Assembly: GCA_018823885.1 (NCBI GenBank)
Contig: JAHJHG010000006.1
Location: 10,752 to 74,751 of the forward strand
Source of the DNA: Patescibacteria group bacterium
GTDB lineage: Bacteria; Patescibacteriota; Microgenomatia; UBA8517
Direction of reading: 5' to 3'
Length of the DNA stretch: 64,000 bases
Shown here: piece after piece, positions 3,605 to 21,833 of the stretch
Numbering within the stretch: position 1 is the stretch's first letter
How the letters are laid out: each line of letters opens with the position of its first letter
Notes under the pieces: generated by a model
The model's database searches: none
What the model saw: the letters and a program-made list of their open reading frames with translations, nothing else
What the model was told of the DNA's origin: nothing
Translations under genes and position numbers: made by a program

Positions 3605-5848
3605 CTATATCATTCCTGCAAAGATATTTTCAACTTCTTCCTGATTTAAAACCCCTGTTATTATTCTTTTAACGATTCCCTTTCTGTCTAAGAAGTAATG
3701 AGTCGGAAGTGAGTATATACTGTAATCTTCTATCAACCTTCCGTCAGCATCTATTACAATAGGTAAACTATAATTCCCTCGTTTAGCAAAAATGGAAACT
3801 TTAGAGCTTGTTTCCTGAGTTGAAACTACTGCCATCTGAGTATCCCCACCTGTCATATTGTTAAGAACGGCTAGTTGTTCCAAAGATGGAGATGACCAAG
3901 TACTGATAAAAGTCAGTAATAAAGGCTTTCCCCGCGTGTCAGTTAACCCAAACTCACCATCAATAGTAGGCAGAGTAAATACAGGGGCTTCCTTTCCTAA
4001 TATATCCCACTTCGCTGCTTCTACCGGTATGACTGGGGTACTAATATTGACATTCGCTTTATCTCCGGAAAAATCAGGTAAGGTGAAAACAAAGGGCCCC
4101 AGATTAATCCGTCTGCCAACTTCAAGCTCGAAATCAGCATTGATGGGAGCGGGGACTGAAAGAGTAAATATCTTGCTGGTTAGAGTTGTATAACCGGAGG
4201 AACTGATTCTAAAATAGTATGTACCAGGTGGTAAAAAGTATTGGTAGTTTCCACTCTCATCTGTTTCTTGCGGGTTTTCTTGACCAAAAGGTTTTGCATC
4301 CCAAAGCGTCCAAATCTCACTTAATGGATCCTTGTAATAAGCACTAACTTTGGCCTCTTTGGGTGGCTTCTGAGTATCTTTTGCCACCACTTTACCTGGA
4401 CTAAGAACAACAACTGAATTAAGAATTCTTTCCGTTTCGTTCTCGGCACCATCTTTTGCTTTTACCAGCAACTCATAAAATCCTGGATCGGGAAAGTTAA
4501 TTGTTCCGGACCAAAGACCTGTTTCCGGTGAACGAGGTAAAGAATACATGGCGTCATTGGCATATAAATCAATAGAAGTCGGACCACCAACAGTTGACAA
4601 TGTAATTCTTTGTTCTAACCCTGCCATGGTCACTATTACCCCATCTTTATTCGGCATTAGTATTAAAGGGCCCAAAGAAAGAAGGTTTCCTCCAACCAAT
4701 GGAGGAAGGCGGTCTATTATTAAAGTATGTGTTTTTGAAGTACCCCTGTTCCCTGCTCCATCTGTAGCTCTAACCACTATTTCATAATTACCATCATCAA
4801 AGATTTCGGGAACAAAACTAAATTCCGTCGAAGTTGCTCCAGGGTCGATAATTTCATCAACGGGTAACCAATTGACTCCCCCATCCGTTGAATAATCAAC
4901 TCCAGCTATTCTTGATTTATCCGAAGCCCTTCCTGTTATTAATGGTGGTTGTTCAAAAGGATCATCAAAATCCGTAGTGATAGTAACACTTGGTGGTATT
5001 TTATCCGTTGGGGCTTTAACAATGATTGTTTGTGTCGTTGTCACTGTTTGTGTCGTTGTCACTGTAGTCGCCATACCAACACTGGTAGCCGTACCAGTTG
5101 TAAAAGAATTTTCAGTAGTACAACCCTGATTCCCTGCTGCATCTGTACTGCAAGCCCGATAATAGTAGGTTGTACTAGCCCCTAAATTGTCTGGAGAAAG
5201 CGAATGAGAGGTTGACAATGTCGCGCTATTTTTGTTAAGAGAATATATTCCTGTTTCTAAGCCATATTCGACTAAAGAAGTTGCCGACTCGCTACTTGTC
5301 CAAGCCACCACCGCAGATGAGCTTCCTATACTTGAAACACTTAAATTCGATATTGTGGGGGCGGTAATATCAGTCCCCCCGGTAACATTAAACGCCAAGT
5401 TGCCCGAACAAGAAAAAGAATTCGCTCCTCCTGCGTCATCCGAAACCTCCACTGACCAATTTCCAGAAGCCCCAGCAATATCGCCAATGTCAGCTGAAAT
5501 ATTAGGAGTAATAGTTCCTCCTGCAGCAAGAGGGTCCTGATAATACCTATATGTTATTGAGTCGCTAGCCCAATCTGTATACCAAGCTGGATAGACTGAA
5601 GCCCCCTTAAAAGTTACGCCATCGTTCGGTCTAGTAATTTTAAACCATAAAACATCGGCCGCATCTGTATTGTTTAACGTAAAAATAAAAGCAATCCCAT
5701 TAACATTGGCCTCTGGATCATTTGGGGTAACGGAAACAGAGCAAGAACTAATGATCGCTTCTGCCGGTTTTATAAATTCAAAACGAAGAAATGCAACAAA
5801 AGCAAAAACAAAAATAATCGCCAAATATTTTTTAGTCCGAGCAGGCAT
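3605..5848 (-). CDS. Secreted multidomain protein: signal peptide, fibronectin-III-like, Ig-like and carboxypeptidase-regulatory-like beta-sandwich domains, and a C-terminal thioredoxin/TlpA-like fold without a CXXC motif
   Basis: The 747-aa ORF begins with an N-terminal signal peptide (MPARTKKYLAIIFVFAFVAFL...AEA). An FN3-like segment (PTISNLSVSSIGSSSAVVAWTSSE...) is followed by a Thr-rich repeat (TTVTTTQTVTTTQT). The C-terminal about 110 aa resembles a redoxin/TlpA fold, but the active-site position reads WSSPS instead of CxxC. Confidence 0.55.
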   Translation of the reverse strand: MPARTKKYLAIIFVFAFVAFLRFEFIKPAEAIISSCSVSVTPNDPEANVNGIAFIFTLNNTDAADVLWFKITRPNDGVTFKGASVYPAWYTDWASDSITYRYYQDPLAAGGTITPNISADIGDIAGASGNWSVEVSDDAGGANSFSCSGNLAFNVTGGTDITAPTISNLSVSSIGSSSAVVAWTSSESATSLVEYGLETGIYSLNKNSATLSTSHSLSPDNLGASTTYYYRACSTDAAGNQGCTTENSFTTGTATSVGMATTVTTTQTVTTTQTIIVKAPTDKIPPSVTITTDFDDPFEQPPLITGRASDKSRIAGVDYSTDGGVNWLPVDEIIDPGATSTEFSFVPEIFDDGNYEIVVRATDGAGNRGTSKTHTLIIDRLPPLVGGNLLSLGPLILMPNKDGVIVTMAGLEQRITLSTVGGPTSIDLYANDAMYSLPRSPETGLWSGTINFPDPGFYELLVKAKDGAENETERILNSVVVLSPGKVVAKDTQKPPKEAKVSAYYKDPLSEIWTLWDAKPFGQENPQETDESGNYQYFLPPGTYYFRISSSGYTTLTSKIFTLSVPAPINADFELEVGRRINLGPFVFTLPDFSGDKANVNISTPVIPVEAAKWDILGKEAPVFTLPTIDGEFGLTDTRGKPLLLTFISTWSSPSLEQLAVLNNMTGGDTQMAVVSTQETSSKVSIFAKRGNYSLPIVIDADGRLIEDYSIYSLPTHYFLDRKGIVKRIITGVLNQEEVENIFAGMI
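5028..5063. repeat. Perfect tandem 2 x 18-bp repeat (tgtttgtgtcgttgtcac) inside the 747-aa secreted-protein gene
   Basis: The repeat is seen directly in the sequence. It encodes the duplicated TTTQTV hexapeptide on the minus strand, and its length of 18 is a multiple of 3. Confidence 0.8.
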
Positions 5849-5933
5849 TACTTTATTCTACTATGGAAAATGTTACCGACAAAGAACCCTTGAACAAAAC
5901 CACACAACCCCGCTATTATTAAAATATACTTAT

Positions 5934-6389
5934 ATGGTTGGTGTTGTTACATTTTGGGAAACTTTTATCGGAGTAGATAATCCAATCTACATTGGAGATA
6001 TATGGGCTAACACCATAAGACCACTTGGTGGTACCCATTTATTTTATGTTGACCAGCAAGGAATAGGAACACCGAGCATAGATGCTTCTATCGTTTCTAA
6101 AACCTATTCTACTTTCCAAGAAGTATTGGATGACAACCCCGATGCAACCTATGTGTTTCTTGAGGCTGAAAGGAGTATTCCAAAAGGTACCGATTTTACT
6201 TACTTAAAAGACTTTGTTCATCCCAAAGAAGACGTCATTTATGTTTTCGGCAAAGATAGTTCTGATGTGTTCACAGAGAACCTGCCACTTGAAGGAAATC
6301 ATGTTGTATCAATTACCACAAATGATAATCTTGTGCTCTGGTCATTAATAACAGTCGGTATCGTTCTGTATGATAGAAAGGTTAAATAA
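5934..6389 (+). CDS. Hypothetical protein, first gene of the beta-helix cluster; the start is uncertain
   Basis: The ORF runs 5670..6389, but its first 180 nt overlap the convergent 747-aa gene. The first in-frame ATG outside that overlap is at 5934 (151 aa). Its stop, TAA, overlaps the ATG of the next gene (taATGg), which suggests translational coupling. Confidence 0.35.
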   Translation: MVGVVTFWETFIGVDNPIYIGDIWANTIRPLGGTHLFYVDQQGIGTPSIDASIVSKTYSTFQEVLDDNPDATYVFLEAERSIPKGTDFTYLKDFVHPKEDVIYVFGKDSSDVFTENLPLEGNHVVSITTNDNLVLWSLITVGIVLYDRKVK

Positions 6390-8500
6390 TGGCATTTTCA
6401 ATTACATCAGATATGACCACTATTGATACTTGTTCTGATACCACAAACTGGTCAGGAACTATTACTCCTACGCAAGACACTGAGGTGTTTATTGAGGGCG
6501 CCGCCTCAGTCGGAATGGTAAAAGTATCACAGGGGAAATTTATTGAAAAATTTGATTATTATACTGAAAAAGCAAGCAATTATTATAATGCTTCTACTAA
6601 TCCTACTCATTTATATTTTTGGGTAAATGTCTCCAACGGCGGTGGACTTTATCCGCTGTCTAGTGGAACAGAATCTACAGAAGGCGGAGTTAGACTATAT
6701 ATGGAAGACAGCGCTGGTGCTTATGTTGAGTGGTACGTTGCAGGTTCAGACACTTACTCTGGTGGTTGGAGATGTTTCGTAGCCTACACCGATGCCGCGC
6801 CCAATAACTCATCTGGTTCAATTAACAAATCACAAATTCGATATTTTGGTGTAACTCTAAATATGCAAGCTAAAACCACAGCTAACGTGAGAAATGCTTG
6901 GATAGATTTTATCAGATATGGTTCAGGTCTCATTTGTAGTGGAACCGACACGGGCCAAATGACTTGGGATGATATTTATGCCGGTGATCTTGCGGGTCCA
7001 CATGGGGTTATTAGAAAAGAAGGTGGAATTTTCTTCGTACAAGGATCGGTCACCATAGGCGACAATATTGGAACAAGTGCAACAGATTTCAGTGATGCTA
7101 ACCAAGTTCTCGTATTTGAAGACGCAAACGTTTCAAGTACTTTATATAACATTACAATCGTCGGCAATGCCACAGGAGATACTGATTTTCAAATGGGAAC
7201 CAAATCGGGTACGGCAGGAATTTCAGGATGCATTATCAGGTCGGCTGGTATAAATAAATATGATTTCACTTGTACCGATACTGCAGTCGAAGAGCTGTTG
7301 TTATACGGGTGTACTTTTTATGATGCGGACGTTATTTCTCTCCCGGCCTATTCCGCCTCGGCTCCACTTAGAGAAGTATTAAACTGCAACTTTGAGGCGT
7401 GTAATCAGGTTGATCCTGATACTTGTACAGTAACTAATTGTAATTTCATTAACGCTGATGACAGAGGGTGTTTGATAGATACTTCATCTCACCATATTAC
7501 CGATTCAAATTTTATTGCCTGTCCAGACGCAGTACATATTAATACTGCTGATACTTATACTTTTTCTGGTCTTATCTTCACCAACAACACCTATGACGTA
7601 GAAAACTCATCTGCCGGTGTCGTAAATATTAACGTATCCGGAACTGGAGCGGCTTCCTCAGCTGAAAATACTGGTGGGGGCTCTACAAACTTTATTTCGT
7701 CCGTTGATGTAGATGCCAAAGTACTAAACGATGCAGGCTCAAATATAGAAAATGCGCAAGTGTATATTCAAAAATCCGATACTGGAAAACAATGGAATTA
7801 TGTTTCTCATTCTGGAAATGCATTAAACGACACTGACTTTGTGGTTACTGGAGCAATTGACGATGATTTGCCCTCATCAGGGTGGATACACGTTTGGGAC
7901 AAATCAGATAATTCCAAGCAGAATTATAGATATACCGGATGGGCAACGGCAACAGATACAACTTTTACACTAAAAACTAATGTAACAGGAAGTGCAACAA
8001 GTGAAGATGGAACAAGCCCAGAAATAAAATTAATTTCTACATCGTCTGATTTTATAGCAATGAAAACGGCTGGGACTATTGAAGAAGGAGACTCAATTTA
8101 TAATTCAACTGATTTAAGCTGGGCTATTGTAGACGAAATAGTAGATGCAGACAATGTAACTACAACTCCACTACAAGGTGGTTCGGACAATAAATGGCAA
8201 GCCAGTGATGGATTCAGTCTACATAAATTAGTAAAGGCTTATACTCTCACCGATGATAAAATAGACATTCCCCTATTCAACGGACAGACTGATTCAAACG
8301 GAGAAATATCAACCTCATATAACTATGGAGAAATTGGAAATCCTCCTGGTCAGTCTGGTTATACTTCCCTGCCCATTTGGATCAGAATTAGATCAAACCA
8401 AGGTACACCTAAATATATTCCATACAACACGAGCGGAACCATAACAGGAAGTGGATACGATTTAACGGCGGTTATCACAGAAGACGATGTAGCAACATAA
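6389..8500 (+). CDS. Right-handed parallel beta-helix repeat protein (pectate-lyase / tailspike-like fold)
   Basis: The 703-aa ORF has repeated short beta-helix rungs rich in N, C, T, I and V (NITIVGNATGD; CIIRSAGIN; NCNFEACNQVD; VTNCNFINADDRGCLIDTSSHHITDSNFIACPDAVHIN). There is no N-terminal signal peptide. Confidence 0.6.
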   Translation: MAFSITSDMTTIDTCSDTTNWSGTITPTQDTEVFIEGAASVGMVKVSQGKFIEKFDYYTEKASNYYNASTNPTHLYFWVNVSNGGGLYPLSSGTESTEGGVRLYMEDSAGAYVEWYVAGSDTYSGGWRCFVAYTDAAPNNSSGSINKSQIRYFGVTLNMQAKTTANVRNAWIDFIRYGSGLICSGTDTGQMTWDDIYAGDLAGPHGVIRKEGGIFFVQGSVTIGDNIGTSATDFSDANQVLVFEDANVSSTLYNITIVGNATGDTDFQMGTKSGTAGISGCIIRSAGINKYDFTCTDTAVEELLLYGCTFYDADVISLPAYSASAPLREVLNCNFEACNQVDPDTCTVTNCNFINADDRGCLIDTSSHHITDSNFIACPDAVHINTADTYTFSGLIFTNNTYDVENSSAGVVNINVSGTGAASSAENTGGGSTNFISSVDVDAKVLNDAGSNIENAQVYIQKSDTGKQWNYVSHSGNALNDTDFVVTGAIDDDLPSSGWIHVWDKSDNSKQNYRYTGWATATDTTFTLKTNVTGSATSEDGTSPEIKLISTSSDFIAMKTAGTIEEGDSIYNSTDLSWAIVDEIVDADNVTTTPLQGGSDNKWQASDGFSLHKLVKAYTLTDDKIDIPLFNGQTDSNGEISTSYNYGEIGNPPGQSGYTSLPIWIRIRSNQGTPKYIPYNTSGTITGSGYDLTAVITEDDVAT

Positions 8501-8567
8501 AAATGGGTCTTGATTATATTAGGAGAAATGTCTCATTATAGTTTATAGTTAATTACAGGACAAAAAT

Positions 8568-8909
8568 ATGAAAATAAAACTAATTAGTTATCCCTATAAG
8601 GATTATGAAGTTGGAGAGATTGTTGATCTTGGTGAAGACAAAAATAGGTCGATGGTGTCTTTGCAAAGAGCTGTTTGGGTTGAAGAAGAAGAGAAAAAGA
8701 AAAGGACACCAAAAAAGACCGTTACAAAAACAGCCACGCAAACACAAGACGATGTAATTGAAGAAGAAGAAAAACCAGCAAAAGAGACCGAAGAAGTTGA
8801 AGAAACAAAAAAGCCGACTCGAGGACCAGACGGGAAATTTGTAAGCAAAGAGGAAACAGAAAATACAGAAAAACCTAAAAAAAAAGGCTTTCTGAGTAGG
8901 CTGAGGTAA
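8568..8909 (+). CDS. Lys/Glu-rich low-complexity hypothetical protein
   Basis: The 113-aa ORF is highly charged low-complexity sequence (EEEEKKKRTPKK...EEEEKPAKETEE). It sits in the same orientation as the flanking large genes. Confidence 0.4.
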   Translation: MKIKLISYPYKDYEVGEIVDLGEDKNRSMVSLQRAVWVEEEEKKKRTPKKTVTKTATQTQDDVIEEEEKPAKETEEVEETKKPTRGPDGKFVSKEETENTEKPKKKGFLSRLR

Positions 8910-8921
8910 AACAAGAGTAGG

Positions 8922-9122
8922 ATGGAAATTTTTAATTTACACTCTAATAATAAAAAGAAAATTAAAGGCTTGAAAGTTACGTCACACAAAGAATATGATA
9001 AGAACGGGAAGAAGCGTACCAATCGGTACGTAGAGTTTACGGTTGTCGGAAAAAATCGACAATGGAAAGATTTTATGCCGGTTGAAGACTTTAAAAAATT
9101 GAATCCCGAGATTAATATCTAA
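8922..9122 (+). CDS. Small basic hypothetical protein
   Basis: This 66-aa ORF fills the gap between the KE-rich gene and the 982-aa gene on the same strand. Confidence 0.3.
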   Translation: MEIFNLHSNNKKKIKGLKVTSHKEYDKNGKKRTNRYVEFTVVGKNRQWKDFMPVEDFKKLNPEINI

Positions 9123-9127
9123 CTGCC

Positions 9128-12076
9128 ATGGCAATACAAAACGATTTTACAGTCTACCCTACATCAAAAGTAATTAGGCATACTTCTGGAACAACCGTTT
9201 ACTCAGCGGTTGCTTTCTACTCCTGGTTAATGAACACTTTTGACGAGCCAGGATACTTGACCTATGAAACCCCGATAAGGTTCAACACACCAACTTCGTT
9301 CACGATGATTAATGGCTGGTTTCTAGACGATGGGGATGGCAATCCCGCTGACACGGAAGATGGCCACATTCTTAAATATATAACTGGTGGTGGTATTGAT
9401 ACCTCCGGTTATGCCACAGTTTCTGATCCTATCTATATGGCAGACCTGGCTACTTCTACAGTCGATTTTGTCTACACAGATAAAGACCTACAAGTAACGT
9501 CTGGAGCAGCCGTGGGCCCACTACTGGCCTATAAAAATGATTACCCCACTTCCGCCCGCATTCGTATTTGGGTCAGAGATACTGAATCACACGGAGCACT
9601 CGCCACATCAACTGTCACAGAGGTCACCACTGCGGGAGGTTCGGGAACGGGTACTACTGATGGCACCACAGCATCTGTAAGCGGTGATGAGATTTACCAC
9701 AATCTGTTTACCATTGCGTCCTTTCCAACTGACGTTTATCCCCAGGTATATGTCTATCAACGACACCCTGTAACAACACAAAGTTATAACACCAGAGTCC
9801 GCATAGCGGAGTGGTCTGGTTTTACCAACTGGGACAGAGGTTCGGATGGAATTGATGTCCTCATTCCAGTCAAGCTAGGTGGTACAGCTGTTGACGGTGG
9901 CAACCTTACAGCTTTCGTCCGCGAAACTGGCGACACCTACACTTTTGTTAAGTCTACACTGACATCATCAGGTAGAACCCCTATCGCTACTGAAACTTCC
10001 GCTGACGAGGTAAATATTACTGAAGGTGAACACTATTTGCTTTACGACGGTTCTGATACTGGCTCATTTTCCGCTGATGATGTCATTACCGACAGCGATG
10101 TTTCAACGGGTGTCCCCCCCTCCTGGTACGCCGAGGTAGTTGAGGTAGATGAATTTACTGCCACTGCCACCGGTTTGCTCACAATTCGGTCTTTGCACGG
10201 AACCATTTCAGACAATGACGATATTTATGTCACCGCTTATTCTGCTGGTGCACCGGTGAGCGTACTTGAGGGTACAGTTAATGGTACTGTGGGCGACACA
10301 CTTGTGACACACACTGGAGCTGGTACTGAACCGGTTATAGGAGACATTGATTTACCTTTTGAAGGGGGTACTAGTGGAGCACACCGAGTCTTGAGAGGGT
10401 ATGATAATGCTGAAAACAAGCTTGTTATGCAGGTATATCATACATTTGGCACTCTCGACTCTCAGGTTTATACCGGATCGGGCAGAGATGCTCTTTACAT
10501 AGATTTTTCATTAACTGAAGTAGTAGACGCTCCAGCCAGTGGTACTGGTCTCATGAGTGTAACCACATCAGCAGTTAGCACTACTTTAATCTCTGGATTT
10601 TCTGATGTCACAGTGGCTCATATGAACGGTACTGTAACAGTCAGTGGTATTGCCAACGGCCCACTTATTCTTGGAGATAGATTCACGTACAACACAGGGG
10701 CCCAATCTGGGATCTTAATTTATGCCGATAGCCTAACTGCCCCCACATCTCTCATGCTCGGGAATATTGATCCTGACAATGAACCAGATGCGTCAGACCA
10801 ATTTGCTTTCCAGCTCGCCGGATCTGGTGCATGTACTGTCGACTGTGACTCTGTTTTGACTGATAATAATTCACAAAATTTTGAATTTACTCTTCAATCG
10901 ACTGGGGCGCTTTACACTATTTTTATTGAAGGAGGATCCATTTACAACGCTGGTCGAAGTCTTGCCGATATCTATGCATATTTGCAATACTACGTTCGAG
11001 ACGGCCAGAATATATCCGAGAGAACTATCTATACCAGCGATGGCACTGCCATTACAAAATTAGCGGCCGAAGAATATATCAAGGCAGTCGATGTAACTGC
11101 TTATTCTGCAACCAAACCAGCACCGTTCGGAACCTTAGCTGGAACCACTTTCTTCGGTGCCCAAGGTGTGTGGCTGCAGGGCATGACAAGCACTGACAAC
11201 AACAACATAAAATTCATTGATGCTGGTACAAGCCCCACTTGGGTAGGAACTCTCCGAGAGCCTGATCCATCTATAAACTTAACGATAAGTAACACTAGGG
11301 TTGGCGATAGAATAGCAGTCTACCTAGAAAGTGGCTCTACTACTTTGCCTGACAAAGCTCAATACACGAGCCATGCCACACTTAATGCTCAAAGTGACTC
11401 AACTTTTGATAGAAATGCCTCTGATGGTGCATTCCCCATCGACACACCAACTTTTGGAACTTTTATCGCAGTTGCCACTGATGAAAGCGAGGAGCACAGA
11501 TATAGATATACTTCTTATAACGCAACTGGTGGTGGTGGTTCCGATGGACAATTAGTGTTACCGACTGAAAGGACGGGAACGGCGACAGCTGGTTCTACTG
11601 GACAAACTTTGGTAGCTTCGGCTGCAACGTTTGTTAGCTGGGTCGACCAGAATGGATTAACAACCCAAATTGGAGATATTATCAGAAGAACCAATAATGA
11701 GGGTGGGTGGGCGTATATCACCAGCATCGATTCAGAAACACAAGTTACGACAACACTATTTAACGCTGGCATCACTCAGGGTTGGGATGATACTGCAACA
11801 GCTGATACATTTGAGATGCTCTCTTTAGTGCAATTATATGATGACAGCGATACTTTCTTTATCCCTTATATGGACTTTAGAGAATCCGCTGGAACGGATG
11901 GTTCCCCGGGTTCAGAAACAGTAACAGTATTGTATTATGCAAATCGAGAAGTAGTAATTGAGGTTCGCAACGTCGAAGCTTCCACTCAGATTATTCCTTT
12001 CAAAACCACCGGAACTATTTCTTCAACAGGTTTGACTCAGTCTGTAATTAGAAACGAAGATACTGTTTACACTTAA
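9128..12076 (+). CDS. Large Thr/Gly/Ser/Asp-rich hypothetical structural protein (fibre/adhesin-like), no signal peptide
   Basis: The 982-aa ORF has a composition typical of beta-sandwich fibre or adhesin proteins. It shares its strand with the beta-helix genes, and no catalytic motifs were recognised. Confidence 0.55.
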   Translation: MAIQNDFTVYPTSKVIRHTSGTTVYSAVAFYSWLMNTFDEPGYLTYETPIRFNTPTSFTMINGWFLDDGDGNPADTEDGHILKYITGGGIDTSGYATVSDPIYMADLATSTVDFVYTDKDLQVTSGAAVGPLLAYKNDYPTSARIRIWVRDTESHGALATSTVTEVTTAGGSGTGTTDGTTASVSGDEIYHNLFTIASFPTDVYPQVYVYQRHPVTTQSYNTRVRIAEWSGFTNWDRGSDGIDVLIPVKLGGTAVDGGNLTAFVRETGDTYTFVKSTLTSSGRTPIATETSADEVNITEGEHYLLYDGSDTGSFSADDVITDSDVSTGVPPSWYAEVVEVDEFTATATGLLTIRSLHGTISDNDDIYVTAYSAGAPVSVLEGTVNGTVGDTLVTHTGAGTEPVIGDIDLPFEGGTSGAHRVLRGYDNAENKLVMQVYHTFGTLDSQVYTGSGRDALYIDFSLTEVVDAPASGTGLMSVTTSAVSTTLISGFSDVTVAHMNGTVTVSGIANGPLILGDRFTYNTGAQSGILIYADSLTAPTSLMLGNIDPDNEPDASDQFAFQLAGSGACTVDCDSVLTDNNSQNFEFTLQSTGALYTIFIEGGSIYNAGRSLADIYAYLQYYVRDGQNISERTIYTSDGTAITKLAAEEYIKAVDVTAYSATKPAPFGTLAGTTFFGAQGVWLQGMTSTDNNNIKFIDAGTSPTWVGTLREPDPSINLTISNTRVGDRIAVYLESGSTTLPDKAQYTSHATLNAQSDSTFDRNASDGAFPIDTPTFGTFIAVATDESEEHRYRYTSYNATGGGGSDGQLVLPTERTGTATAGSTGQTLVASAATFVSWVDQNGLTTQIGDIIRRTNNEGGWAYITSIDSETQVTTTLFNAGITQGWDDTATADTFEMLSLVQLYDDSDTFFIPYMDFRESAGTDGSPGSETVTVLYYANREVVIEVRNVEASTQIIPFKTTGTISSTGLTQSVIRNEDTVYT

Positions 12077-12082
12077 ACCCAA

Positions 12083-12565
12083 TTAGTTTGATTTTGAAGG
12101 AGATCTAAGCTTCTCTAAGATTATTCTCGTTTCAAGTGCTTTTTTAGTCTCACCTGTAAAATAATATACTTGGCCAAGATTATAGTATGCTTCCCGGTAC
12201 TTCGGATATATTTTAATCGCTCTTTTGTAAAAAAATTCAGCCTCCTTAAGTCGATCTGTACTCATGTAAACATTTCCCAAGTTATTATAGACTACTCCAC
12301 TATTCGGCTTTATTTTTAAAGCTTTGACATAAATATTTTCTGCTTCCTTAAAAAGCCCCGCACATTTATAGGCCACTCCAAGATTGCAGTAAGCCTTAAA
12401 GTAATCAGGCATAATTTTAATAGCCTGTTTATAACTGGCAATGGCTTTGGGATATTCCCTCTTTTTCAAAAAATCGTTGCCAGCCTGATAGTACACTTTT
12501 GCCTGCTGCTGCTTCATTTTGTAAATTGTACCATTTAAGATGACGAACACTTTGACTTCGAGCAA
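12083..12565 (-). CDS. Tetratricopeptide (TPR) repeat protein
   Basis: The 160-aa ORF contains about four 34-aa repeats with the W/LG/Y and A/F/AP signature (AIASYKQAIKIMPDYFKAYCNLGVAY...). Confidence 0.7.
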   Translation of the reverse strand: MLEVKVFVILNGTIYKMKQQQAKVYYQAGNDFLKKREYPKAIASYKQAIKIMPDYFKAYCNLGVAYKCAGLFKEAENIYVKALKIKPNSGVVYNNLGNVYMSTDRLKEAEFFYKRAIKIYPKYREAYYNLGQVYYFTGETKKALETRIILEKLRSPSKSN

Positions 12566-12657
12566 TCTGCTGCTACAGGCGATTATTATTAGTTTAAGCT
12601 CCTAATGCCGTTAACAACTAGATTTGAAGGAATTCTTCCGACATAATAGTATGAGTT

Positions 12658-13977
12658 ATGGCAATAAGAGTAAATCCTTACGTTAGCCCTAGAATTATAG
12701 AGGTTCAAGCACCCCTTACAGAAATCTCTATTCAAGACTTAACTGACCAAATAAAAGACTGGGAAGACGAACCAGCCGATCTTGCCTTTCCTATTTTGAT
12801 TAGAACGTACGGAAAACAACCTCTTGGTGGCGGATCTTTCGTGGGAATAACAGCTGTATTACAAAACGCAAAAATTTCTTTTGAAGCTAGGGACGGATTA
12901 GATACTCCACCCGAGGTTTTATGTACTATCTCCGGAGGAAATTTAGTTGCCGTTGACGATGTTGGTGCCTCAATGAACCCTATTCACCCAACTGCTTATA
13001 CTCAAGTTGTTATTGCCCAGTCAACCTCTCCTTCTATTATTACTCCACCCGAAGACCTTAACATGCTTTACCTTATTGAATCTCTAAGAGGTACTGGTAA
13101 ATCTTTGGGGAGTATTTTCTACTGGGATCCGGAAGGTGGAAGCGATACAAACGATGGGAGCCAACCTAGTGAAGCTGTTCAAACCTTTGCCGCAGCACAG
13201 GCATTGACGACAGCCGGAGCGGGAGATATTATTTTTGCTCTCTCAACCCACTCAAGTGGAATCACAACTACCTCTGAAAAACTAAGCATTACTACCGCGG
13301 GCCTGAAAGTAAGAGGCCCTGGCTACAGACTTCAATTGATTCCATCGGCCACCGGTTCCCCTACCGTCAATATCTCAGCCAACTCTGCTGAATTTGAGGG
13401 TTTTTATATCGAAACGAAGAGTGGAGGAACAGACAACGGAATCACAGCGACTGGAAATAATGTGGTGATTAAAGACTGTTGGGTAAATTCTGCCACTGGT
13501 AATGGAATTGATATTTCCTCGACCAGTAGAACTGAAATTAATACTTGCGTGATTGAAGAGAGTGTTGGTTACGGAATCAATGTGGGGGCAACAACAAGTC
13601 TCTCAACAATTCGAAAATGTATCATCTCTGGCAACTCCGAAGGAGTATATATTGCGGGGGCCAGCATTACGGACAACATATTGGAAAACAATATAATTTA
13701 CAACAACACGACCAGCGGAATTGAAATTGGCAACGGAGTGGTCAGAACCGGGATTCGATTGCATCATACTTTTGCCGCCAATAACCCCAATATCACTGAC
13801 GATGGAACAGGGACTTATCAAGACACATCAGGGACAATCGAGCAAGGGGATATCGACAACATTGTTAGTGGGGTTTGGGATGAAGTAATTTCAGCTACAG
13901 CTCATGCGGGTGCCGGAAGTGCCGGAAAGACATTGAGGGACGCGAAAACGAAAGCCACCCTTGCTTCCCTTAAGTAA
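12658..13977 (+). CDS. Right-handed parallel beta-helix repeat protein (second tailspike-like paralog)
   Basis: The 439-aa ORF has consecutive beta-helix rungs (NGITATGNNVVIKDCWVNSATGNGIDISSTSRTEINTCVIEESVGYGINVGATTS...CIISGNSEGVYIAGASITDNILENNIIYNNTTSGIEIGNG). There is no signal peptide. Confidence 0.65.
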   Translation: MAIRVNPYVSPRIIEVQAPLTEISIQDLTDQIKDWEDEPADLAFPILIRTYGKQPLGGGSFVGITAVLQNAKISFEARDGLDTPPEVLCTISGGNLVAVDDVGASMNPIHPTAYTQVVIAQSTSPSIITPPEDLNMLYLIESLRGTGKSLGSIFYWDPEGGSDTNDGSQPSEAVQTFAAAQALTTAGAGDIIFALSTHSSGITTTSEKLSITTAGLKVRGPGYRLQLIPSATGSPTVNISANSAEFEGFYIETKSGGTDNGITATGNNVVIKDCWVNSATGNGIDISSTSRTEINTCVIEESVGYGINVGATTSLSTIRKCIISGNSEGVYIAGASITDNILENNIIYNNTTSGIEIGNGVVRTGIRLHHTFAANNPNITDDGTGTYQDTSGTIEQGDIDNIVSGVWDEVISATAHAGAGSAGKTLRDAKTKATLASLK

Positions 13978-14599: not shown

Positions 14600-14791
14600 A
14601 TGCCAGCCTTCTTAAAAAACATCGGAGCAGTCGAGCTCATCATCATTGCCCTCATTCTTGTTCTTCTTTTCGGAGGTAAAAAGTTTAAGGAATTAGCTCG
14701 TGGACTTGGAGAGTCAAAACACGAAGCGAAAAAACTTAAAGAAGAAATTATAGGCAAGGGCAAGAAGGATTCTGAAGAAGACGCTTCTTGA
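14600..14791 (+). CDS. tatA: Twin-arginine translocase subunit TatA/E family (copy 1, subtype a)
   Basis: The 63-aa product has a single N-terminal TM helix (GAVELIIIALILVLLFGGKKF) followed by an amphipathic basic helix. This is the classic TatA architecture. Confidence 0.8.
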   Translation: MPAFLKNIGAVELIIIALILVLLFGGKKFKELARGLGESKHEAKKLKEEIIGKGKKDSEEDAS

Positions 14792-14841
14792 CTAGTTGCC
14801 ACAAACAAGTAAGAATTAATAAGTAAGGGAGGTGGTAGATA

Positions 14842-14985
14842 GTGATCAAGAATCTAGGAACAACTGAACTAATAATTATCGCTTTAATCTTAATACTTCT
14901 ATTTGGTGGCAAAAAGATACCTGAGTTTATAAAGGGTGTCGGAGAGGCTGTTAAAGAATTCCGAAAGGCGTCTAAAGAAGACTAA
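14842..14985 (+). CDS. tatA: TatA family protein (copy 2, subtype b), GTG start
   Basis: The 47-aa product reads VIKNLGTTELIIIALILILLFGGKKIPEFIKGVGEAVKEFRKASKED. An AAGGGAGG RBS lies 10 nt upstream. An in-frame stop lies immediately upstream of the GTG, so no ATG start is possible. The product is too short for the ORF track. Confidence 0.65.
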   Translation: MIKNLGTTELIIIALILILLFGGKKIPEFIKGVGEAVKEFRKASKED

Positions 14986-14991
14986 TTTTCT

Positions 14992-15198
14992 ATGCTAAAA
15001 AACTTAGGAACGGTTGAATTTGTGGTTATCGGAGTAATCGCAGTTCTTTTGTTTGGAAGCAAAAGAATAACAGATGTGGCCAAAGGCCTGGGCAAGTCAA
15101 CAAAGGAATTCAAAAAAGCACAAAGTGAATACGAAAAAACAGTTAACAAAGATGTCTCCGAAGAAGAGTCGGAAGACAAAGATAAGGAGGTGACATAG
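14992..15198 (+). CDS. tatA: TatA family protein (copy 3, subtype a)
   Basis: The 68-aa product begins MLKNLGTVEFVVIGVIAVLLFGSKRITDVAKGLGKSTKEFKK. Confidence 0.8.
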   Translation: MLKNLGTVEFVVIGVIAVLLFGSKRITDVAKGLGKSTKEFKKAQSEYEKTVNKDVSEEESEDKDKEVT

Positions 15199-15351
15199 AT
15201 GTTTGGAAAACTTGGAGCATTAGAATTAATTATTATCGCTTTTGTCTTAATCCTACTTTTCGGTGGCAAAAAGATCCCTGAATTAGTTCGCGGAATCGGT
15301 GAGGCCGTTCGTGAATTTAAAAAGGGTGCCAAAGAAGAAAAAAAAGATTAA
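15199..15351 (+). CDS. tatA: TatA family protein (copy 4, subtype b)
   Basis: The 50-aa product reads MFGKLGALELIIIAFVLILLFGGKKIPELVRGIGEAVREFKKGAKEEKKD. A GGAGGTG RBS sits 6 nt upstream. The sequence was found by manual translation. Confidence 0.75.
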   Translation: MFGKLGALELIIIAFVLILLFGGKKIPELVRGIGEAVREFKKGAKEEKKD

Positions 15352-15412
15352 ATTACTCCTCTTGCACATATCCCCCTGTTTAACTTATCATTAGACAAAT
15401 TAGCTTTTATCT

Positions 15413-15577
15413 ATGTTAAATAACGTTGGACCGGCTGAAATGATAATCATTGGTATTGTGGCTCTTTTCCTTTTCGGAAACAAGAAACTGTCCGAATTGG
15501 CTCGAGGCCTCGGGGAGTCAACTAAAGAATTTAAAAAGATTAAAAAAGACATTGGAAAAGAAATTGATACAGACTAA
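15413..15577 (+). CDS. tatA: TatA family protein (copy 5, subtype a)
   Basis: The 54-aa product reads MLNNVGPAEMIIIGIVALFLFGNKKLSELARGLGESTKEFKKIKKDIGKEIDTD. It was found by manual translation. Confidence 0.75.
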   Translation: MLNNVGPAEMIIIGIVALFLFGNKKLSELARGLGESTKEFKKIKKDIGKEIDTD

Positions 15578-15609
15578 TAAATATTTAAGACCGGAAGGGG
15601 GTGTTATAA

Positions 15610-15762
15610 ATGCCTAGTCGATTTGGAGCATTAGAAATTGCCATTATCGCTTTGATTCTTATATTGCTTTTTGGTGGTAAAAAGATCCCTGAATTAATAA
15701 AGGGGGTCGGAAAAGGAATCCGAGAGTATCGCAAAGCGTCAAAAGAAGAGAAAAAGGAATAA
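15610..15762 (+). CDS. tatA: TatA family protein (copy 6, subtype b)
   Basis: The 50-aa product reads MPSRFGALEIAIIALILILLFGGKKIPELIKGVGKGIREYRKASKEEKKE. A GGAAGGGGG RBS lies upstream, and the stop abuts the tatC ATG. Confidence 0.75.
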   Translation: MPSRFGALEIAIIALILILLFGGKKIPELIKGVGKGIREYRKASKEEKKE

Positions 15763-16506
15763 ATGGACGATATATATAATCGCTTCTTCCCGTACCTTAT
15801 GGAGGTTCGAAAAAGGCTGTTTTTTATAGCCTCTATTTTTCTTATTTCATCCGCCCTGGGTTTCATCTATTACGAGAAGATAATCACCACCAGCCTGGGT
15901 ATTTTTAATCTTGAGGGAATAAATATTGTTTTTACCTCTCCTTTTCAATTTTTAGAACTTTCAATTAATTCCGGCCTCCTGGTCGGTTTGATTGCTGTTT
16001 TCCCTCTGATAATAGTTCAGGTCCTGTCATTCTTAAAACCCGCCTTAAAGAAAAGCGAATTTAAGCTGGTTATTTCTCTCTTGCCCTTAAGTATCTTTCT
16101 TTTTATCTTCGGATTTACCTACGGCATCTTTATCATGAGATATGTCTTGGTTATCTTCTATGAGAAGTCCTTAGCGCTTTCCATTGGCAACTTCTTAGAT
16201 GTTAGCAAGTTCCTCTCTCAGATTCTGCTTACCTCGGCTCTAATGGGCCTAGCCTTCCAATTTCCTGTTATCTTGACAGTCCTAATGCGCCTAAGAGTAA
16301 TAACGTATAGCGCCCTTTCAAAACAAAGAATGATCGCTTACTCCTCCTCAATTATCTTTGCCGCCTTTTTGCCACCTACCGACCTGCTCTCTCTTGCCCT
16401 TTTAACAGTCCCTCTTGTAATACTTTTCGAAACTACGCTATTATTAAACAAGGTGGTATTCAAAGCCCCCCTTAAACCAAAAAAGGAGGTGAAACGTAAT
16501 GTTTAA
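15763..16506 (+). CDS. tatC: Twin-arginine translocase subunit TatC
   Basis: The 247-aa product has 6 predicted TM helices. It shows TatC-like conserved stretches (FLKPAL, PPTDLLS), and its ATG sits 1 nt after the stop of the sixth tatA. Confidence 0.85.
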   Translation: MDDIYNRFFPYLMEVRKRLFFIASIFLISSALGFIYYEKIITTSLGIFNLEGINIVFTSPFQFLELSINSGLLVGLIAVFPLIIVQVLSFLKPALKKSEFKLVISLLPLSIFLFIFGFTYGIFIMRYVLVIFYEKSLALSIGNFLDVSKFLSQILLTSALMGLAFQFPVILTVLMRLRVITYSALSKQRMIAYSSSIIFAAFLPPTDLLSLALLTVPLVILFETTLLLNKVVFKAPLKPKKEVKRNV

Positions 16507-16657
16507 AACAATTGGATCAACAGAACTACTAATAATTGCCATAATATTACTTATTCTTTTTGGAGGAAGAAAGCTTCCAGAGCTTGGAAAAGGAATGGGA
16601 GAATCTGTAAAGGAATTTAGAAAATCTTTAAAGAAAGAACCTAAAACCAAAAAGTAA
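16499..16657 (+). CDS. tatA: TatA family protein (copy 7)
   Basis: The 52-aa product reads MFKTIGSTELLIIAIILLILFGGRKLPELGKGMGESVKEFRKSLKKEPKTKK. It overlaps the tatC stop by 8 nt, and an AAAGGAGGTG RBS lies inside the tatC 3' end. Confidence 0.75.
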   Translation: MFKTIGSTELLIIAIILLILFGGRKLPELGKGMGESVKEFRKSLKKEPKTKK

Positions 16658-17665: not shown

Positions 17666-20443
17666 TTAATACTCAAGAGAAGAATACTCTTTTGAAACCC
17701 AGCCTAATGTTCCATCATTCAGCTCTATCTGGTACCAATCAGCTTTTTCGTCTATGAGAGCAAAAGATTCACCCGGTTCAACTTTGGCAATCTCTATTCC
17801 GCCGGGGGCCTTTCTCACTCTTAACCAGCCTGTAGGAGTATCTTCAATCATCACCGTGCCTCCAATGGGGTCAGTTAGGCTTTCAAACTCTTCCTCTCCT
17901 AACGAATCTTCTTCAAAAGGTACCCCTTCTACAACAAATTCTAAATAAACCCAGCCTTCTGTGTAATCGCCCTCTTTCTCGTTCACAAAGGCAATGTTCG
18001 CCCAATCTCCTTCCTCCCCTATCCTAACCACTTCTTGAGTTACCTTAAGGCGCATGATCACCGCAGAAGTTAATGACGGCTCTTCTCTGATGTTGACCGA
18101 AGAACCGACCGGTACTTCTACCATCACAATATCCTCTCCCCCAGTCGCATCTTCTTCAAGCTCTTCTTCCTCAAGGTCAATTACTTCAGCTTCCTCCTGC
18201 TCACCCAAAACAAACTCCGATTCGTCTATGGTTTCGGCCACTTGCTGAGAAACAATTTTGGCGGTGATCACCTTGCTGGTAATAAAAGCGGTCAGGGCGG
18301 CAATCCCGGCACCAAACAGAATGAATAAAACAGCCAGTCTAATGGCAACCTGCTTTCTAATACGTCTTCTGGCTTCACCATTTGTCTTCTTTGTCTTTGT
18401 TTTCATCTTCATGGGTTGTGTCTTCTTCTTATTGCTCTTGGCCATCTCCTTGTCTCTAAGAGTCTTCATGTAGACTGCCAGGAAAATAAATCCGCCGGCA
18501 ACGATAACAATCATTCCCCAAACGGCCAGTGTTTGGGTACTGCCGACAAAACCAAAGAGGGTGCCGATAGAACCTGCTTCAGTGACCAATTCTTGAAGTT
18601 TGTCCATCTTGGTGTTGACAGCATCAAGTTCGATTTCGGCCTCACGGTAAGCTCTAATCTTTTGTTCGGGAGTAATAGCCGTCTTCTGAAGTTCAATAAT
18701 TTTGTCTAAAGAAACATCAATATCGCTTTTAAGAGTCACTCCTTGAGCGAAGTAGGATGTCTTCTCAAGTGGTCTGGAAAGTTCTTCTGCTTGTTTGCGT
18801 AAACTTTCTACCTGTTCTTCCGTAATTACCCAAATATCGTTTACCTGAATTGATACCGTTTTTGTTTGTCCGGCTCCTAATGTAAACTCACCTTCTACGT
18901 AATATTGATCTTGCTCTGCATCATATTTAACTGTTAAATCATCATCTGTTGAAATAATATCTTCCTCTCTCACTTCGGGAGGCAAATAGTATTTTAACGG
19001 AACAGTTTGGCTAATTAAGCTGGAAGGGTTTGTTATTAATGACTTAAAAACAATGCTTCCCAATTCAAGCCAGGTGCTGGCAATGGTTGAGCCCGCCTTT
19101 TTGGCCAAAAATGTTTCGTTTGCTTGAATTAATCCCTTTAAGCTCAATAATTTGTTCTTGAGGATCTTTTCGTCCGAAGTATCTTTGTAAGTCGAAGCGC
19201 CTAAAACTTTTTCTATCCTCGGCAATCTGTTGATGGCAATTATCTTGTTGTATAAGGTATTGATTTTAGAAACTCGATCATTGGCTCTTGTTGAATTCCA
19301 TTTTGCCAATACATTATCAATATCACCTTTTCGAGTTTCAAAAATATCAGCTAAGTCTCTAACCTCTTTTATCTTCCCGAACAATGTCCTTTGGTTTGAA
19401 GAATCTGCAGCATCCCCAACCAATGTCTCAAGTCTATCGATATTACCTACCAGGCCTTTTATTTCATTGTAGGCAAAATTGGTTTTACCATAAGAACCAA
19501 GCCTGTATTGAGTGGCTGAAAGAACATTGCCAATGGCGATTGCCTGATTATAAACATCCTCGGTTGCTTTCCACCCCCAAGCTTCCTTTAGCCAATTTAT
19601 TTGTCCAAAAATGGTGTCTTTGTTGTCTGAATCCCCCTCATCTCCCAACATTGCCGAAAGCTCCATGACATTCGAAAGAAGCTCTCTTTCGCTTAGTTTT
19701 GACCACTTCGTAACCAATAAGCTTGCCTTACTTCTCAAATATTGATTGTTTACATAGAGTGTGTTGGCAACTGATTTTGTTTGCTCAAGCTTCTCCCCCA
19801 AATCAGGGGTTTCTTCTTCTTCAATGAAATTTTGAATGATTGGTTCGTTAACCAGCCGCTCAAGCAAAAGCCTGTTTTCATTAATTGTTGCTTCCATACT
19901 GGAAATATCTATTGCATCTTCGTCCCCTGCATTAAGACTGGTCAAGGATCGTGAGGCGTTTGACCATATATTAGAAATCAAATCACCAAAATTGGAAAGA
20001 GTTCTGCCTGAATATCCCCACACAGCCGATGAAATATCTCCGGTGGAGGGAGTAGTTGACGACGCTTTAACTTCGTAACTCTTGTCTAAACACAAATAAT
20101 CACCACTGGCCGTACAACAAACTTGAGCTCGATAAAGACCGGTAGTGGTTGGGGCTGTAAAAGTATGATAATACCAACCATCTGTAGCCTTGGACATTAC
20201 CTCTCCATTAAGATGAAGAGATCCATCGGGATAACGGCTAGTAATAGTACAATCAGCCGTAGTAATAGGAACATAAGAGTCATCATAAAGAAACTCTCCT
20301 ACTGTGCAACTACTGCTTACTGTGCAATCTTGAGGACTTCCTGCTGAGGCCAAAGTATTCCGGGGGAAAACAAGGGCCCCAGCAAGAGCAGAAACAGCAA
20401 TTGCCACAAACACTTGTTTTTGAACAGTTTGGGCAGTTACCAT
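17666..20443 (-). CDS. Large secreted/membrane-anchored protein: signal peptide, long alpha-helical ectodomain, 2 TM helices with a polybasic loop, acidic linker, two C-terminal bacterial SH3 (SH3b) domains
   Basis: The 925-aa ORF begins with a signal peptide (MVTAQTVQKQVFVAIAVSALAGALVFPRNTLASA). It has TM segments flanking KSNKKKTQPMKMKTKTKKTNGEARRRIRK, and an EEEELEED acidic stretch. The two C-terminal segments of about 60 aa carry GW...Y/W signatures typical of SH3_3. Confidence 0.55.
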   Translation of the reverse strand: MVTAQTVQKQVFVAIAVSALAGALVFPRNTLASAGSPQDCTVSSSCTVGEFLYDDSYVPITTADCTITSRYPDGSLHLNGEVMSKATDGWYYHTFTAPTTTGLYRAQVCCTASGDYLCLDKSYEVKASSTTPSTGDISSAVWGYSGRTLSNFGDLISNIWSNASRSLTSLNAGDEDAIDISSMEATINENRLLLERLVNEPIIQNFIEEEETPDLGEKLEQTKSVANTLYVNNQYLRSKASLLVTKWSKLSERELLSNVMELSAMLGDEGDSDNKDTIFGQINWLKEAWGWKATEDVYNQAIAIGNVLSATQYRLGSYGKTNFAYNEIKGLVGNIDRLETLVGDAADSSNQRTLFGKIKEVRDLADIFETRKGDIDNVLAKWNSTRANDRVSKINTLYNKIIAINRLPRIEKVLGASTYKDTSDEKILKNKLLSLKGLIQANETFLAKKAGSTIASTWLELGSIVFKSLITNPSSLISQTVPLKYYLPPEVREEDIISTDDDLTVKYDAEQDQYYVEGEFTLGAGQTKTVSIQVNDIWVITEEQVESLRKQAEELSRPLEKTSYFAQGVTLKSDIDVSLDKIIELQKTAITPEQKIRAYREAEIELDAVNTKMDKLQELVTEAGSIGTLFGFVGSTQTLAVWGMIVIVAGGFIFLAVYMKTLRDKEMAKSNKKKTQPMKMKTKTKKTNGEARRRIRKQVAIRLAVLFILFGAGIAALTAFITSKVITAKIVSQQVAETIDESEFVLGEQEEAEVIDLEEEELEEDATGGEDIVMVEVPVGSSVNIREEPSLTSAVIMRLKVTQEVVRIGEEGDWANIAFVNEKEGDYTEGWVYLEFVVEGVPFEEDSLGEEEFESLTDPIGGTVMIEDTPTGWLRVRKAPGGIEIAKVEPGESFALIDEKADWYQIELNDGTLGWVSKEYSSLEY

Positions 20444-20450
20444 ATTTTAC

Positions 20451-20597
20451 CTACACCTTCTCTTTCGCTACTCGCCGGAGTTCAGAGACAGACTCTCCTA
20501 CTCCCTTGGCAAGTTCTGGCAGCTTCTTGCCGCCAAAGAGAACAAAAAGCATCACAGCTATTACGCCTAGCTCTGTTGCTCCTATGTTATTTAACAT
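20451..20597 (-). CDS. tatA: TatA family protein (copy 8), immediately upstream of the 925-aa gene
   Basis: Manual translation of the minus strand gives MLNNIGATELGVIAVMLFVLFGGKKLPELAKGVGESVSELRRVAKEKV (48 aa). A GGGAGGTG RBS lies upstream, and the stop is 5 nt from the next ATG. The antisense ORF 20401..20664 shows the characteristic mirror sequence (SGSFLPPKR). Confidence 0.7.
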   Translation of the reverse strand: MLNNIGATELGVIAVMLFVLFGGKKLPELAKGVGESVSELRRVAKEKV

Positions 20598-20827
20598 GCA
20601 GTCAATCACCTCCCTTCTAATAAGTTGGCTGGGTTTCCAACAGGTAAAACCAAAGTGTATTTAGTTGGGCAGGATTTTCCGTGAAAACCCAGCTGTCTCC
20701 AGTATTGACTGTTATTTGATATATTGTCAAGGGGCATTTTCTATCCAATTTTTCTTATCATAATCTTATCATATTTTGTTATTCTAGCCTCAAATTTAGG
20801 AAATTATTCCAAGATTGACTCTGTGAT

Positions 20828-21805: not shown

Positions 21806-21833
21806 GGCAATGTATAAGAAGGTATCAGTTTAG

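Follow-up and report, generated by a model that had tools for sequence, protein, structure and literature searches.

A conserved pairing of a TatA-family gene with a large SH3b-bearing envelope protein gene in the expanded Tat locus of Microgenomatia

Why should a gene for a minimal TatA-family protein stand directly ahead of a gene for a very large envelope protein that carries no twin-arginine signal? The question is raised by a 64,000-nucleotide stretch of a Patescibacteria group bacterium (assembly GCA_018823885.1, contig JAHJHG010000006.1, positions 10,752 to 74,751), hereafter the window, in which the 48-codon tatA8 precedes an open reading frame (ORF) of 925 codons on the minus strand, close to a twin-arginine translocation (Tat) locus. 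The best explanation of the arrangement is a vertically inherited, translationally coupled pair within an expanded Tat locus of Microgenomatia and their WWE3/Dojkabacteria relatives. As to function, we tentatively favour a reading, by no means secure, in which the 925-residue protein is a wall-tethered, hairpin-anchored Tat accessory whose conserved first transmembrane (TM) helix, TM1, contacts the co-translated TatA. TatA proteins and SH3b domains are known; what is new is the family of the 925-residue protein, the fixed association of its gene with that of a TatA paralogue, and a conserved gene cluster centred on the expanded Tat locus.

The two ORFs are arranged as in the initial annotation, a 48-residue minus-strand tatA directly ahead of the 925-residue ORF, except that the spacer between them measures 7 nucleotides and not the 5 it had given. 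tatA8 runs from an ATG at 20597 to a TAG stop codon at 20451-20453, and a Shine-Dalgarno-like AGAAGGTG lies inside its final codons, just upstream of the spacer, which is consistent with translational coupling to the following gene. No terminator-like site or hairpin was found between the two. An alternative GTG start exists at 20609; the ATG is favoured because GGGAGGTGA sits 8 nucleotides upstream of it. Public gene calls for what is given as the same genome (GCA_018815075.1, contig JAHIYB010000008.1) have the 48-residue TatA and the 7-nucleotide gap as well.

The small protein belongs to the TatA family by profile search (Pfam TatA_B_E PF02416, 44.1 bits against a gathering score of 21, E 1.2e-11, residues 5-46). 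Its sequence, MLNNIGATELGVIAVMLFVLFGGKKLPELAKGVGESVSELRRVAKEKV, has a TM helix with E9, the hinge FGGKKLPEL and an amphipathic segment after it, and thus shares with the TatA/TatE family the TM helix, the FG-KK-P hinge and the amphipathic helix. It differs from that family in lacking the charged tail and a conserved Phe (discussed below) and in scoring under the NCBIfam TatA/E subfamily cut-offs (TIGR01411, 41.5 against 53.9 bits; NF011430, 43.9 against 62 bits), and is therefore a family member that these models cannot assign to TatA rather than TatB. The seven ORFs around tatC on the plus strand (14600-16657) all pass the Pfam TatA cut-off too, so that calling tatA8 the eighth tatA was correct.

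Within the Tat locus itself, tatA7 overlaps tatC by 8 nucleotides. TatC keeps Glu at both residues aligned to Escherichia coli E15 and E103, which we take to be the two glutamates that contact the twin arginines. It looks canonical, which argues for a working Tat system, and a role of tatA8 in transport with this TatC is putative, given its genomic linkage to a TatC with the conserved twin-arginine-binding Glu. Bacillus subtilis likewise has several TatA proteins (TatAd, TatAy and TatAc), and its phoD-tatAd-tatCd operon puts a tatA paralogue beside a specific large exported protein. The likeness to the window lies in the tatA paralogue directly beside such a protein; here, however, the neighbouring large protein is without a twin-arginine signal, and eight TatA paralogues accompany one TatC. 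That Microgenomatia encode TatA and TatC is known from an earlier survey (PMC9166423).

The pair recurs far beyond this genome. A synteny scan of one genome per GTDB species gave 80 loci with a homologue of the 925-residue protein, from Woese-, Levy-, Davies-, Ames-, Gottesman-, Roizman-, Shapiro-, Beckwith- and Collierbacteria, WWE3 and Dojkabacteria. Upstream DNA is available for 73 of them, and 48 of these have a same-strand TatA ORF at most 32 nucleotides upstream of the homologue, mostly across a gap of 3-11 nucleotides and sometimes with an overlap of 1-4. These paired loci span Woese-, Levy-, Davies-, Ames-, Gottesman-, Beckwith- and Collierbacteria as well as WWE3, so the synteny comparison, which had been named beforehand as one that might overturn the pairing, found the pair in most testable genomes. 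The upstream TatAs are short (mostly 46-50 residues, some up to 60), with the consensus M...IG.TE..V.A.VLL.LFGGKKLPELARG.G.SI.EFRKA. When compared across genomes, 45 of 49 have another upstream TatA as their nearest neighbour and, judged by these comparisons, they form an orthologous group of their own. Many GTDB records with a Patescibacteria-type locus (L006-L079) have "uncultured Gammaproteobacteria", "Pseudomonadales" or "Gemmatimonadota bacterium" in their titles; these titles are wrong and therefore unusable for taxonomy.

The homologue is also almost always part of a Tat locus. Of 42 well-flanked loci, i.e. those with 4 kb or more on either side, 40 have tatC no farther than 2.3 kb away (median 589 nucleotides), all 42 have at least one tatA, and 39 have a gene for a PrsW-like protease. 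Loci of the Shapiro/Beckwith type are collinear and tightly packed, in the order tatA (three copies), tatC, 925 homologue and PrsW-like gene. Between 1 and 6 TatA copies per genome lie within 6 kb of the homologue. Four classes of TatA paralogue recur across genomes: a short one with "FGGKKIPEF..EFKK", a longer one with "FGSKK...ELKKAKKE", the copy after tatC, and the copy upstream of the 925 gene; the longer class may be TatB-like. The upstream TatAs of WWE3-type loci (L062, L066, L067, L073 and L079) have a TatB-like Gly-Pro hinge, "FGPKKLPEF", and no EF(R/K)K motif, and from this hinge the partner may be more TatB-like in the deep-branching lineages.

What kind of protein is the partner? 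Its layout (Table 1) was drawn from an AlphaFold2 model built with 100 homologues (mean predicted local distance difference test score, pLDDT, 79.5; 562 residues at 90 or above), from alignments of 22 and 100 sequences, and from hydropathy and charge counts. The protein opens with a Sec-type signal peptide, as first described: A32-x-A34 is followed by G35, with A32 invariant and G35 nearly so across the family. The N-terminus of the window protein, MVTAQTVQKQVF, has no (S/T)-R-R-x-F-L-K motif, and neither the two alignments nor the 80 loci showed a conserved N-terminal twin arginine, a few members having one (e.g. L040 and L047). We therefore rejected the protein as an N-terminal twin-arginine Tat substrate; the Sec-type signal, the missing twin arginine and the Cys-rich first domain all argue that it is not canonical Tat cargo. 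Four cysteines of this first beta-sandwich (C40, C46, C65 and C110) are invariant in the alignments. Elsewhere in the window (3605-5848, minus strand) lies a gene for a 747-residue exported protein with Ig-like/fn3 domains and a C-terminal AhpC/redoxin domain, possibly an extracytoplasmic thiol-disulfide oxidoreductase relevant to the Cys-rich domain.

The large ectodomain had been described as an alpha-helical region of roughly 600 residues. Its length holds, as do helical bundles at about 210-450 and helices at 542-630, but two beta-sandwiches (36-126 and 454-534) and a disordered linker interrupt the helical part. The best-conserved block of the family, WLEEGS.VFK..NPS..Q...LKYYLPPE, falls within the second beta-sandwich. 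TM1 also ranks among the best-conserved parts of the protein, with F632, G634, V641, W642 and G643 invariant and Q637 kept in at least 90% of sequences. Hydropathy and charge counts bore out the rest of the original description, two TM helices enclosing a Lys/Arg-rich loop and followed by an acidic linker: the window protein has 18 K/R against 3 D/E in 54 residues of the loop, a strongly hydrophobic TM2 (Kyte-Doolittle score, KD, 2.57) and 19 D/E in the 60 residues after it. These traits are general: three hydrophobic segments were counted in 100 of 120 homologues (cluster representatives), the loop between the TM helices has median counts of 11 K/R and 4 D/E, and an acidic tail follows. By the positive-inside rule, both the N-terminal ectodomain and the C-terminal SH3b pair are predicted to lie outside, with the basic loop alone in the cytoplasm.

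The two SH3b domains reported at the C-terminus were upheld by profile and fold searches alike. The pair matches Pfam SH3_3 (PF08239) in two stretches with 65.4 bits, where the cut-off is 27; a PDB profile search returned exclusively SH3b proteins, and Foldseek placed the pair with the tandem SH3b domains of endolysins and NlpC/P60 proteins (9a7d, 4krt, 3npf and 3h41; E 2e-7 to 2e-4). Two SH3b domains are found in 89 of the 120 homologues, one in 28 and none in 3. From the family, the pair would bind peptidoglycan. Tandem C-terminal SH3b domains are thus shared, by sequence and fold, with endolysins and with NlpC/P60 or amidase autolysins (phiSM101 endolysin 4krt, YrvJ 9a7d and 3h41), from which the 925-residue protein differs in having its pair mounted on a TM hairpin with a 600-residue non-enzymatic ectodomain. 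Searches of Pfam, NCBIfam and PHROGs and a fold search for a peptidoglycan-hydrolase or other catalytic domain in it returned none. A holin-endolysin lysis cassette was rejected on the same ground, the sole PHROG holin match (E 0.003) lying over TM1.

Put together, these features suggest how the favoured Tat accessory might work. The protein is exported by Sec, to judge from its AxA|G signal peptide without a twin arginine and its Cys-rich first domain of the disulfide type. Its N-terminal ectodomain of about 600 residues would then stand outside, followed by the TM hairpin with the polybasic loop in the cytoplasm, and beyond the acidic linker the two SH3b domains would bind the cell's own wall. 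In the membrane, the partner of TM1 (GFVGGxQxxAVWG) would be the short TatA paralogue, translated in stoichiometric amounts from the shared mRNA; that TM1 is so well conserved speaks for a specific partner within the membrane. TatA, or the Tat export site, would thereby be fixed to peptidoglycan beneath a long extracytoplasmic scaffold. Of this picture, the gene structure, the domain architecture, the positive-inside topology, the synteny and the orthology of the upstream TatAs are shown; contact between TatA and the 925-residue protein, attachment to the wall and a part in export are inferred.

Several observations weigh against this Tat accessory. The Phe of the amphipathic helix, presumably equivalent to E. 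coli F39, is gone in tatA8, which has SELRR in place of the (K/R)EF(R/K)K of most orthologues, and it is lost in four related loci as well (L001, L036, L039 and L063). In 7 further loci of the 73, the nearest same-strand TatA or array lies 74-214 nucleotides upstream, and about 18 (some Roizman-, Shapiro- and Levybacteria) have no immediately upstream TatA. The TM1 motif is kept in these TatA-less loci also, so we rejected the idea that it covaries with the presence of an upstream TatA. Further, the closest paralogue of the upstream TatAs is the tatA after tatC, with a nearly identical consensus, and in lineages with a collinear operon, as in WWE3-type loci (order tatC, tatA, 925), the two are one and the same gene. 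For these reasons, the copy in the window lineage probably stems from a duplication of the post-tatC tatA, which took place as the 925 gene came to lie convergent to the tatC operon, and was probably not recruited from an unrelated source; the upstream TatA may be what an inversion or duplication left behind and no specialised partner. The dedicated TatA partner of the initial annotation gains support: the upstream copies do form a group of their own and the 925 gene is almost always in a Tat locus, and the copy is nonetheless probably a duplicate. The ectodomain folds are generic and point to no activity. Finally, Tat systems have been reported in other classes of the Candidate Phyla Radiation (CPR) (PMC9166423) and the 925 family was seen in our scan only in Microgenomatia-type genomes; Tat therefore does not in general need it.

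Much of this would suit an independent envelope protein, i.e. a wall-bound spacer, an adhesin or a cell-shape protein without mechanistic link to Tat, whose position reflects conserved gene order or shared regulation in streamlined genomes. We consider this rather unlikely, although of all the alternatives it deserves the most weight. Its signal peptide is of the Sec type, its ectodomain is assembled from generic adhesin-like modules (Ig-like, helical bundles, SH3b), the roughly 18 loci without an upstream TatA retain both protein and TM1 motif, and the upstream TatA resembles a duplicate. On the other hand, linkage to tatC and tatA in 40-42 of the 42 well-flanked loci has persisted over deep divergence (29-50% identity) and outlasted an inversion that changed the arrangement, gaps of 3-11 nucleotides to tatA recur in both arrangements, and the strong conservation of TM1 would be unusual for a passive anchor.

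The basic loop raises a further possibility, namely dual insertion, where Sec inserts the N-terminal part and TM1 while the twin-arginine loop and TM2 serve as an internal Tat signal-anchor that exports the SH3b domains folded. This is how actinobacterial Rieske proteins, polytopic and inserted by both Sec and Tat, are known to reach the membrane. The likeness lies in a basic twin-arginine loop before the last TM helix and a folded extracytoplasmic domain after it, here with the gene linked to Tat genes. Directly ahead of TM2, the window protein and those most closely related to it carry GEARRRIRKQVAI, the twin-arginine-binding Glu residues of TatC are conserved, and dual insertion would account for the genetic linkage to Tat. 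However, GEARRRIRK occupies this place in the window clade only: ahead of TM2, RR is found in just 18 of the 120 homologues, KR or RK in 30 and neither in 72. The motif is a poor match to Z-R-R-x-phi-phi, the strong hydrophobicity of TM2 favours insertion by Sec or YidC over Tat, and, unlike the Rieske proteins, the family has no cofactor-binding domain that would require folded export. We give dual insertion the least credence of the readings considered here.

The PrsW-like gene invites another view of TM1. It begins 5 nucleotides after tatA7 and encodes an intramembrane metalloprotease in which the motifs EExxK, FxxSE, H and HxxxN are readable, and it is adjacent to the 925 homologue in 63 of the 80 loci. 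In Bacillus, PrsW acts on RsiW and so signals across the membrane. The 925-residue protein might accordingly be a substrate or partner of the PrsW/CPBP-like protease, with cleavage at or near TM1 releasing or activating the ectodomain or sending a signal across the membrane, but this strikes us as very unlikely. Besides the adjacency, which extends to 39 of the 42 well-flanked loci and in L043 has the two genes abutting end to start (8679/8680), the motifs of the 127-residue protein and the Gly-rich, conserved TM1 speak for it, and a PrsW-family gene conserved beside that of a bitopic or hairpin membrane protein, most of it extending far outside the cytoplasm, recalls the PrsW-RsiW and CPBP modules. 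In the window and most other loci, however, translational coupling ties the protease to tatA7 of the tatC operon and not to the 925 gene; it is only 127 residues long, and the 925-residue protein has no cytoplasmic regulatory domain of the anti-sigma type. The protease could process a TatA paralogue as well as the 925-residue protein. TatA might equally be its target, and in Providencia a rhomboid protease is reported to process TatA (PMC3712462).

Directly upstream of the tatA array lies a module of a different character, which usually has this place in Microgenomatia genomes. It comprises o239, o703, o66, the 982-residue protein and a 439-residue right-handed beta-helix protein, and a tetratricopeptide repeat (TPR) gene lies within it on the minus strand. 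The gene for the 982-residue protein, of which the window also has a 703-residue paralogue, precedes that for the 439-residue protein. The latter belongs to a family with 52-87% identity and a fold resembling pectate lyases and phage tailspikes. Its N-terminal 127 or so residues are 45-55% identical to the N-termini of proteins on numerous IMG/VR contigs, of which some measure 350-450 kb, and the order o239, o703, (o66), 982, 439 recurs in viral contigs (e.g. L084 and L101) without any tatA. The whole looks like a domesticated phage module, although a tblastn search of GenBank phages with the beta-helix protein gave no match while IMG/VR contigs hold relatives.

This module bears on the stalk through a shared motif. 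The C-terminus of the 439-residue family (residues about 400-439) carries an almost invariant "IADAVWDEVISGH.T.GT.GKTLKDAKTKATLASLK", and the motif "IADAVWDE..H..G(S/T)xG..L" ends both this protein and viral tail-fibre-like proteins (L082, L089, L101, L107 and L112). The linker of the 925 family has 1-4 copies of a related motif, in some members in the full phage-type form, e.g. "VANSVWNADRASHTASGSFG". A hidden Markov model (HMM) built from the 439-residue C-termini matched the 925 family in 95 of 120 members, always at residues of about 124-158, against 15 of 120 shuffled controls, in which matches were scattered. In this AVW motif the linker resembles the phage tail-fibre and tailspike proteins; the remainder of the 925-residue protein has no relative on the viral contigs of IMG/VR and no match to a structural PHROG, and a phage origin of its family was rejected on these grounds.

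The 925-residue stalk could then be a docking platform that holds the beta-helix protein and the 982- and 703-residue proteins through the shared "IADAVW...G(S/T)xG" motif, with the Tat genes helping to export them folded. We regard this as improbable. The HMM matches favour it, as do the beta-helix gene, upstream of the tatA array and on the same strand in all 31 of the 31 relatives with a full-length copy, its tailspike-like fold, and the recurrence of its N-terminal domain and C-terminal motif in proteins of viral contigs. However, only 4 of the motif matches are individually significant (independent E-value, i-E<0.01), and so short a motif may be convergent. Moreover, signal peptides of every kind are missing from the module proteins, and in relatives of the 439-, 982- and 703-residue proteins a stop codon stands 1-3 codons upstream of the Met; their export is therefore hypothetical. 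More speculative still, the whole cluster (703/982, 439 beta-helix, 3-7 TatA, TatC, PrsW-like protease, and TatA with the 925-residue stalk) might be a single apparatus, in which a Tat system with an enlarged set of TatA exports folded, signal-less tail-fibre/tailspike proteins of phage derivation that are mounted on the stalk by the AVW motif, so that Microgenomatia would have a domesticated, phage-tail-like organelle with which to attach to a host cell's surface or degrade it. This we hold to be a long shot.

Returning to the favoured Tat accessory, its family is large and confined in its distribution. More than 270 full-length homologues with 38-88% identity were found, and all that carry a taxon name are Patescibacteria (Levy-, Woese- and Daviesbacteria), under public names such as "SH3 domain-containing protein", "YgiM (DUF1202 family)" or "hypothetical protein". 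When residues 36-665 were searched exhaustively with phmmer against 1.84 billion cluster representatives, 298 proteins (clusters at 50% identity) reached E<=1e-30 and 1,091 reached E<=1e-3, their lengths lying between about 750 and 1,780 residues. No characterised relative of the ectodomain is known. Full-text literature searches found no description of the family or the cluster. Membership in an anti-phage defence system was rejected as well, PADLOC giving no match for the 925-residue, TatA8, PrsW-like, 439-, 982- or 703-residue proteins.

CPR bacteria make up a large share of bacterial diversity, and their envelope construction and host contact are mostly unknown. A family of about 900 residues, with at least 298 clusters at 50% identity, that is tied to the Tat locus across a class and usually has its own TatA paralogue adds to this picture, as does a conserved cluster of 10-15 kb that includes what look like domesticated phage-tailspike-like genes. 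For the Tat field, the 925-residue protein would, if the favoured reading is true, rank as the first candidate accessory subunit that is large and anchored to the wall, and the locus provides a naturally occurring case of as many as eight TatA paralogues for one TatC.

Table 1. Features of the Tat locus, the gene pair and the upstream module (positions in the window; residue numbers refer to the 925-residue protein)
Feature	Position	Strand	Basis or remark
Phage-tail-like module (o239, o703, o66, 982-aa protein, 439-aa beta-helix protein)	5670..13977	+	
439-aa right-handed beta-helix protein	12658..13977	+	upstream of tatA array
Core Tat operon	14600..16657	+	tatA1-6 14600-15762, tatC 15763-16506, tatA7 16499-16657
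PrsW/CPBP-like intramembrane protease, 127 aa	16663..17046	+	PF13367, 32 bits against cut-off 23.5
925-aa hairpin-anchored envelope protein, Microgenomatia/WWE3-specific family	17666..20443	-	
Residues 770-925, two SH3b domains (770-840, 862-925)	17669..18136	-	
Residues 725-769, acidic extracytoplasmic linker	18137..18271	-	
Residues 698-724, TM2	18272..18352	-	sequence poorly conserved
Residues 660-697, polybasic cytoplasmic loop	18353..18466	-	
Residues 629-659, TM1, motif GFVGGxQxxAVWG	18467..18559	-	
Residues 542-630, helical hairpin or stalk	18554..18820	-	helix 592-666 runs unbroken into TM1
Residues 454-534, second beta-sandwich	18842..19084	-	
Residues ~211-450, four-helix-bundle region	19094..19813	-	pLDDT about 95
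Residues ~127-210, disordered linker of "IAxAVW..RTL..FG" repeats	19814..20065	-	low confidence
Residues 36-126, Cys-rich Ig/filamin-like beta-sandwich	20066..20338	-	pLDDT >90; Ig/filamin fold matches
Residues 1-34, Sec-type signal peptide, AxA|G site	20342..20443	-	alignments
Spacer between tatA8 stop and 925-aa start	20444..20450	-	7 nt, gtaaaat, sequence read
tatA8, 48-aa TatA-family protein	20451..20597	-	PF02416 44.1 bits; public gene call; orthologous group
Promoter-like site TTGACA-18-AATACT, ~100 nt upstream of tatA8	20701..20730	-	weak; such sites not enriched over shuffles

Among the remaining genes, a scan of the window ORFs for twin-arginine signals of Tat cargo gave nothing convincing. 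Divergent from tatA8 lies a gene for a SoFic-like protein (20828-21805, plus strand) with a Fic domain and a C-terminal winged helix (PADLOC SoFic, E 2e-21), a conserved neighbour in 31 of the 80 loci. An M23 peptidase with two LysM domains (21942-23069, minus strand), whose gene adjoins a tRNA-Ala(CGC) at 21833-21904 on the same strand, has "KMARRLMHSGMAGLAAVGMMIAPIIA" at its N-terminus, i.e. RR followed by a hydrophobic stretch, possibly a Tat-type signal or a membrane anchor. Further along, the minus strand has more envelope genes: a 983-residue multi-TM protein (24562-27513) and a 272-residue protein (27625-28443) have no Pfam match, and a sortase is encoded near them (29002-29739, minus strand).

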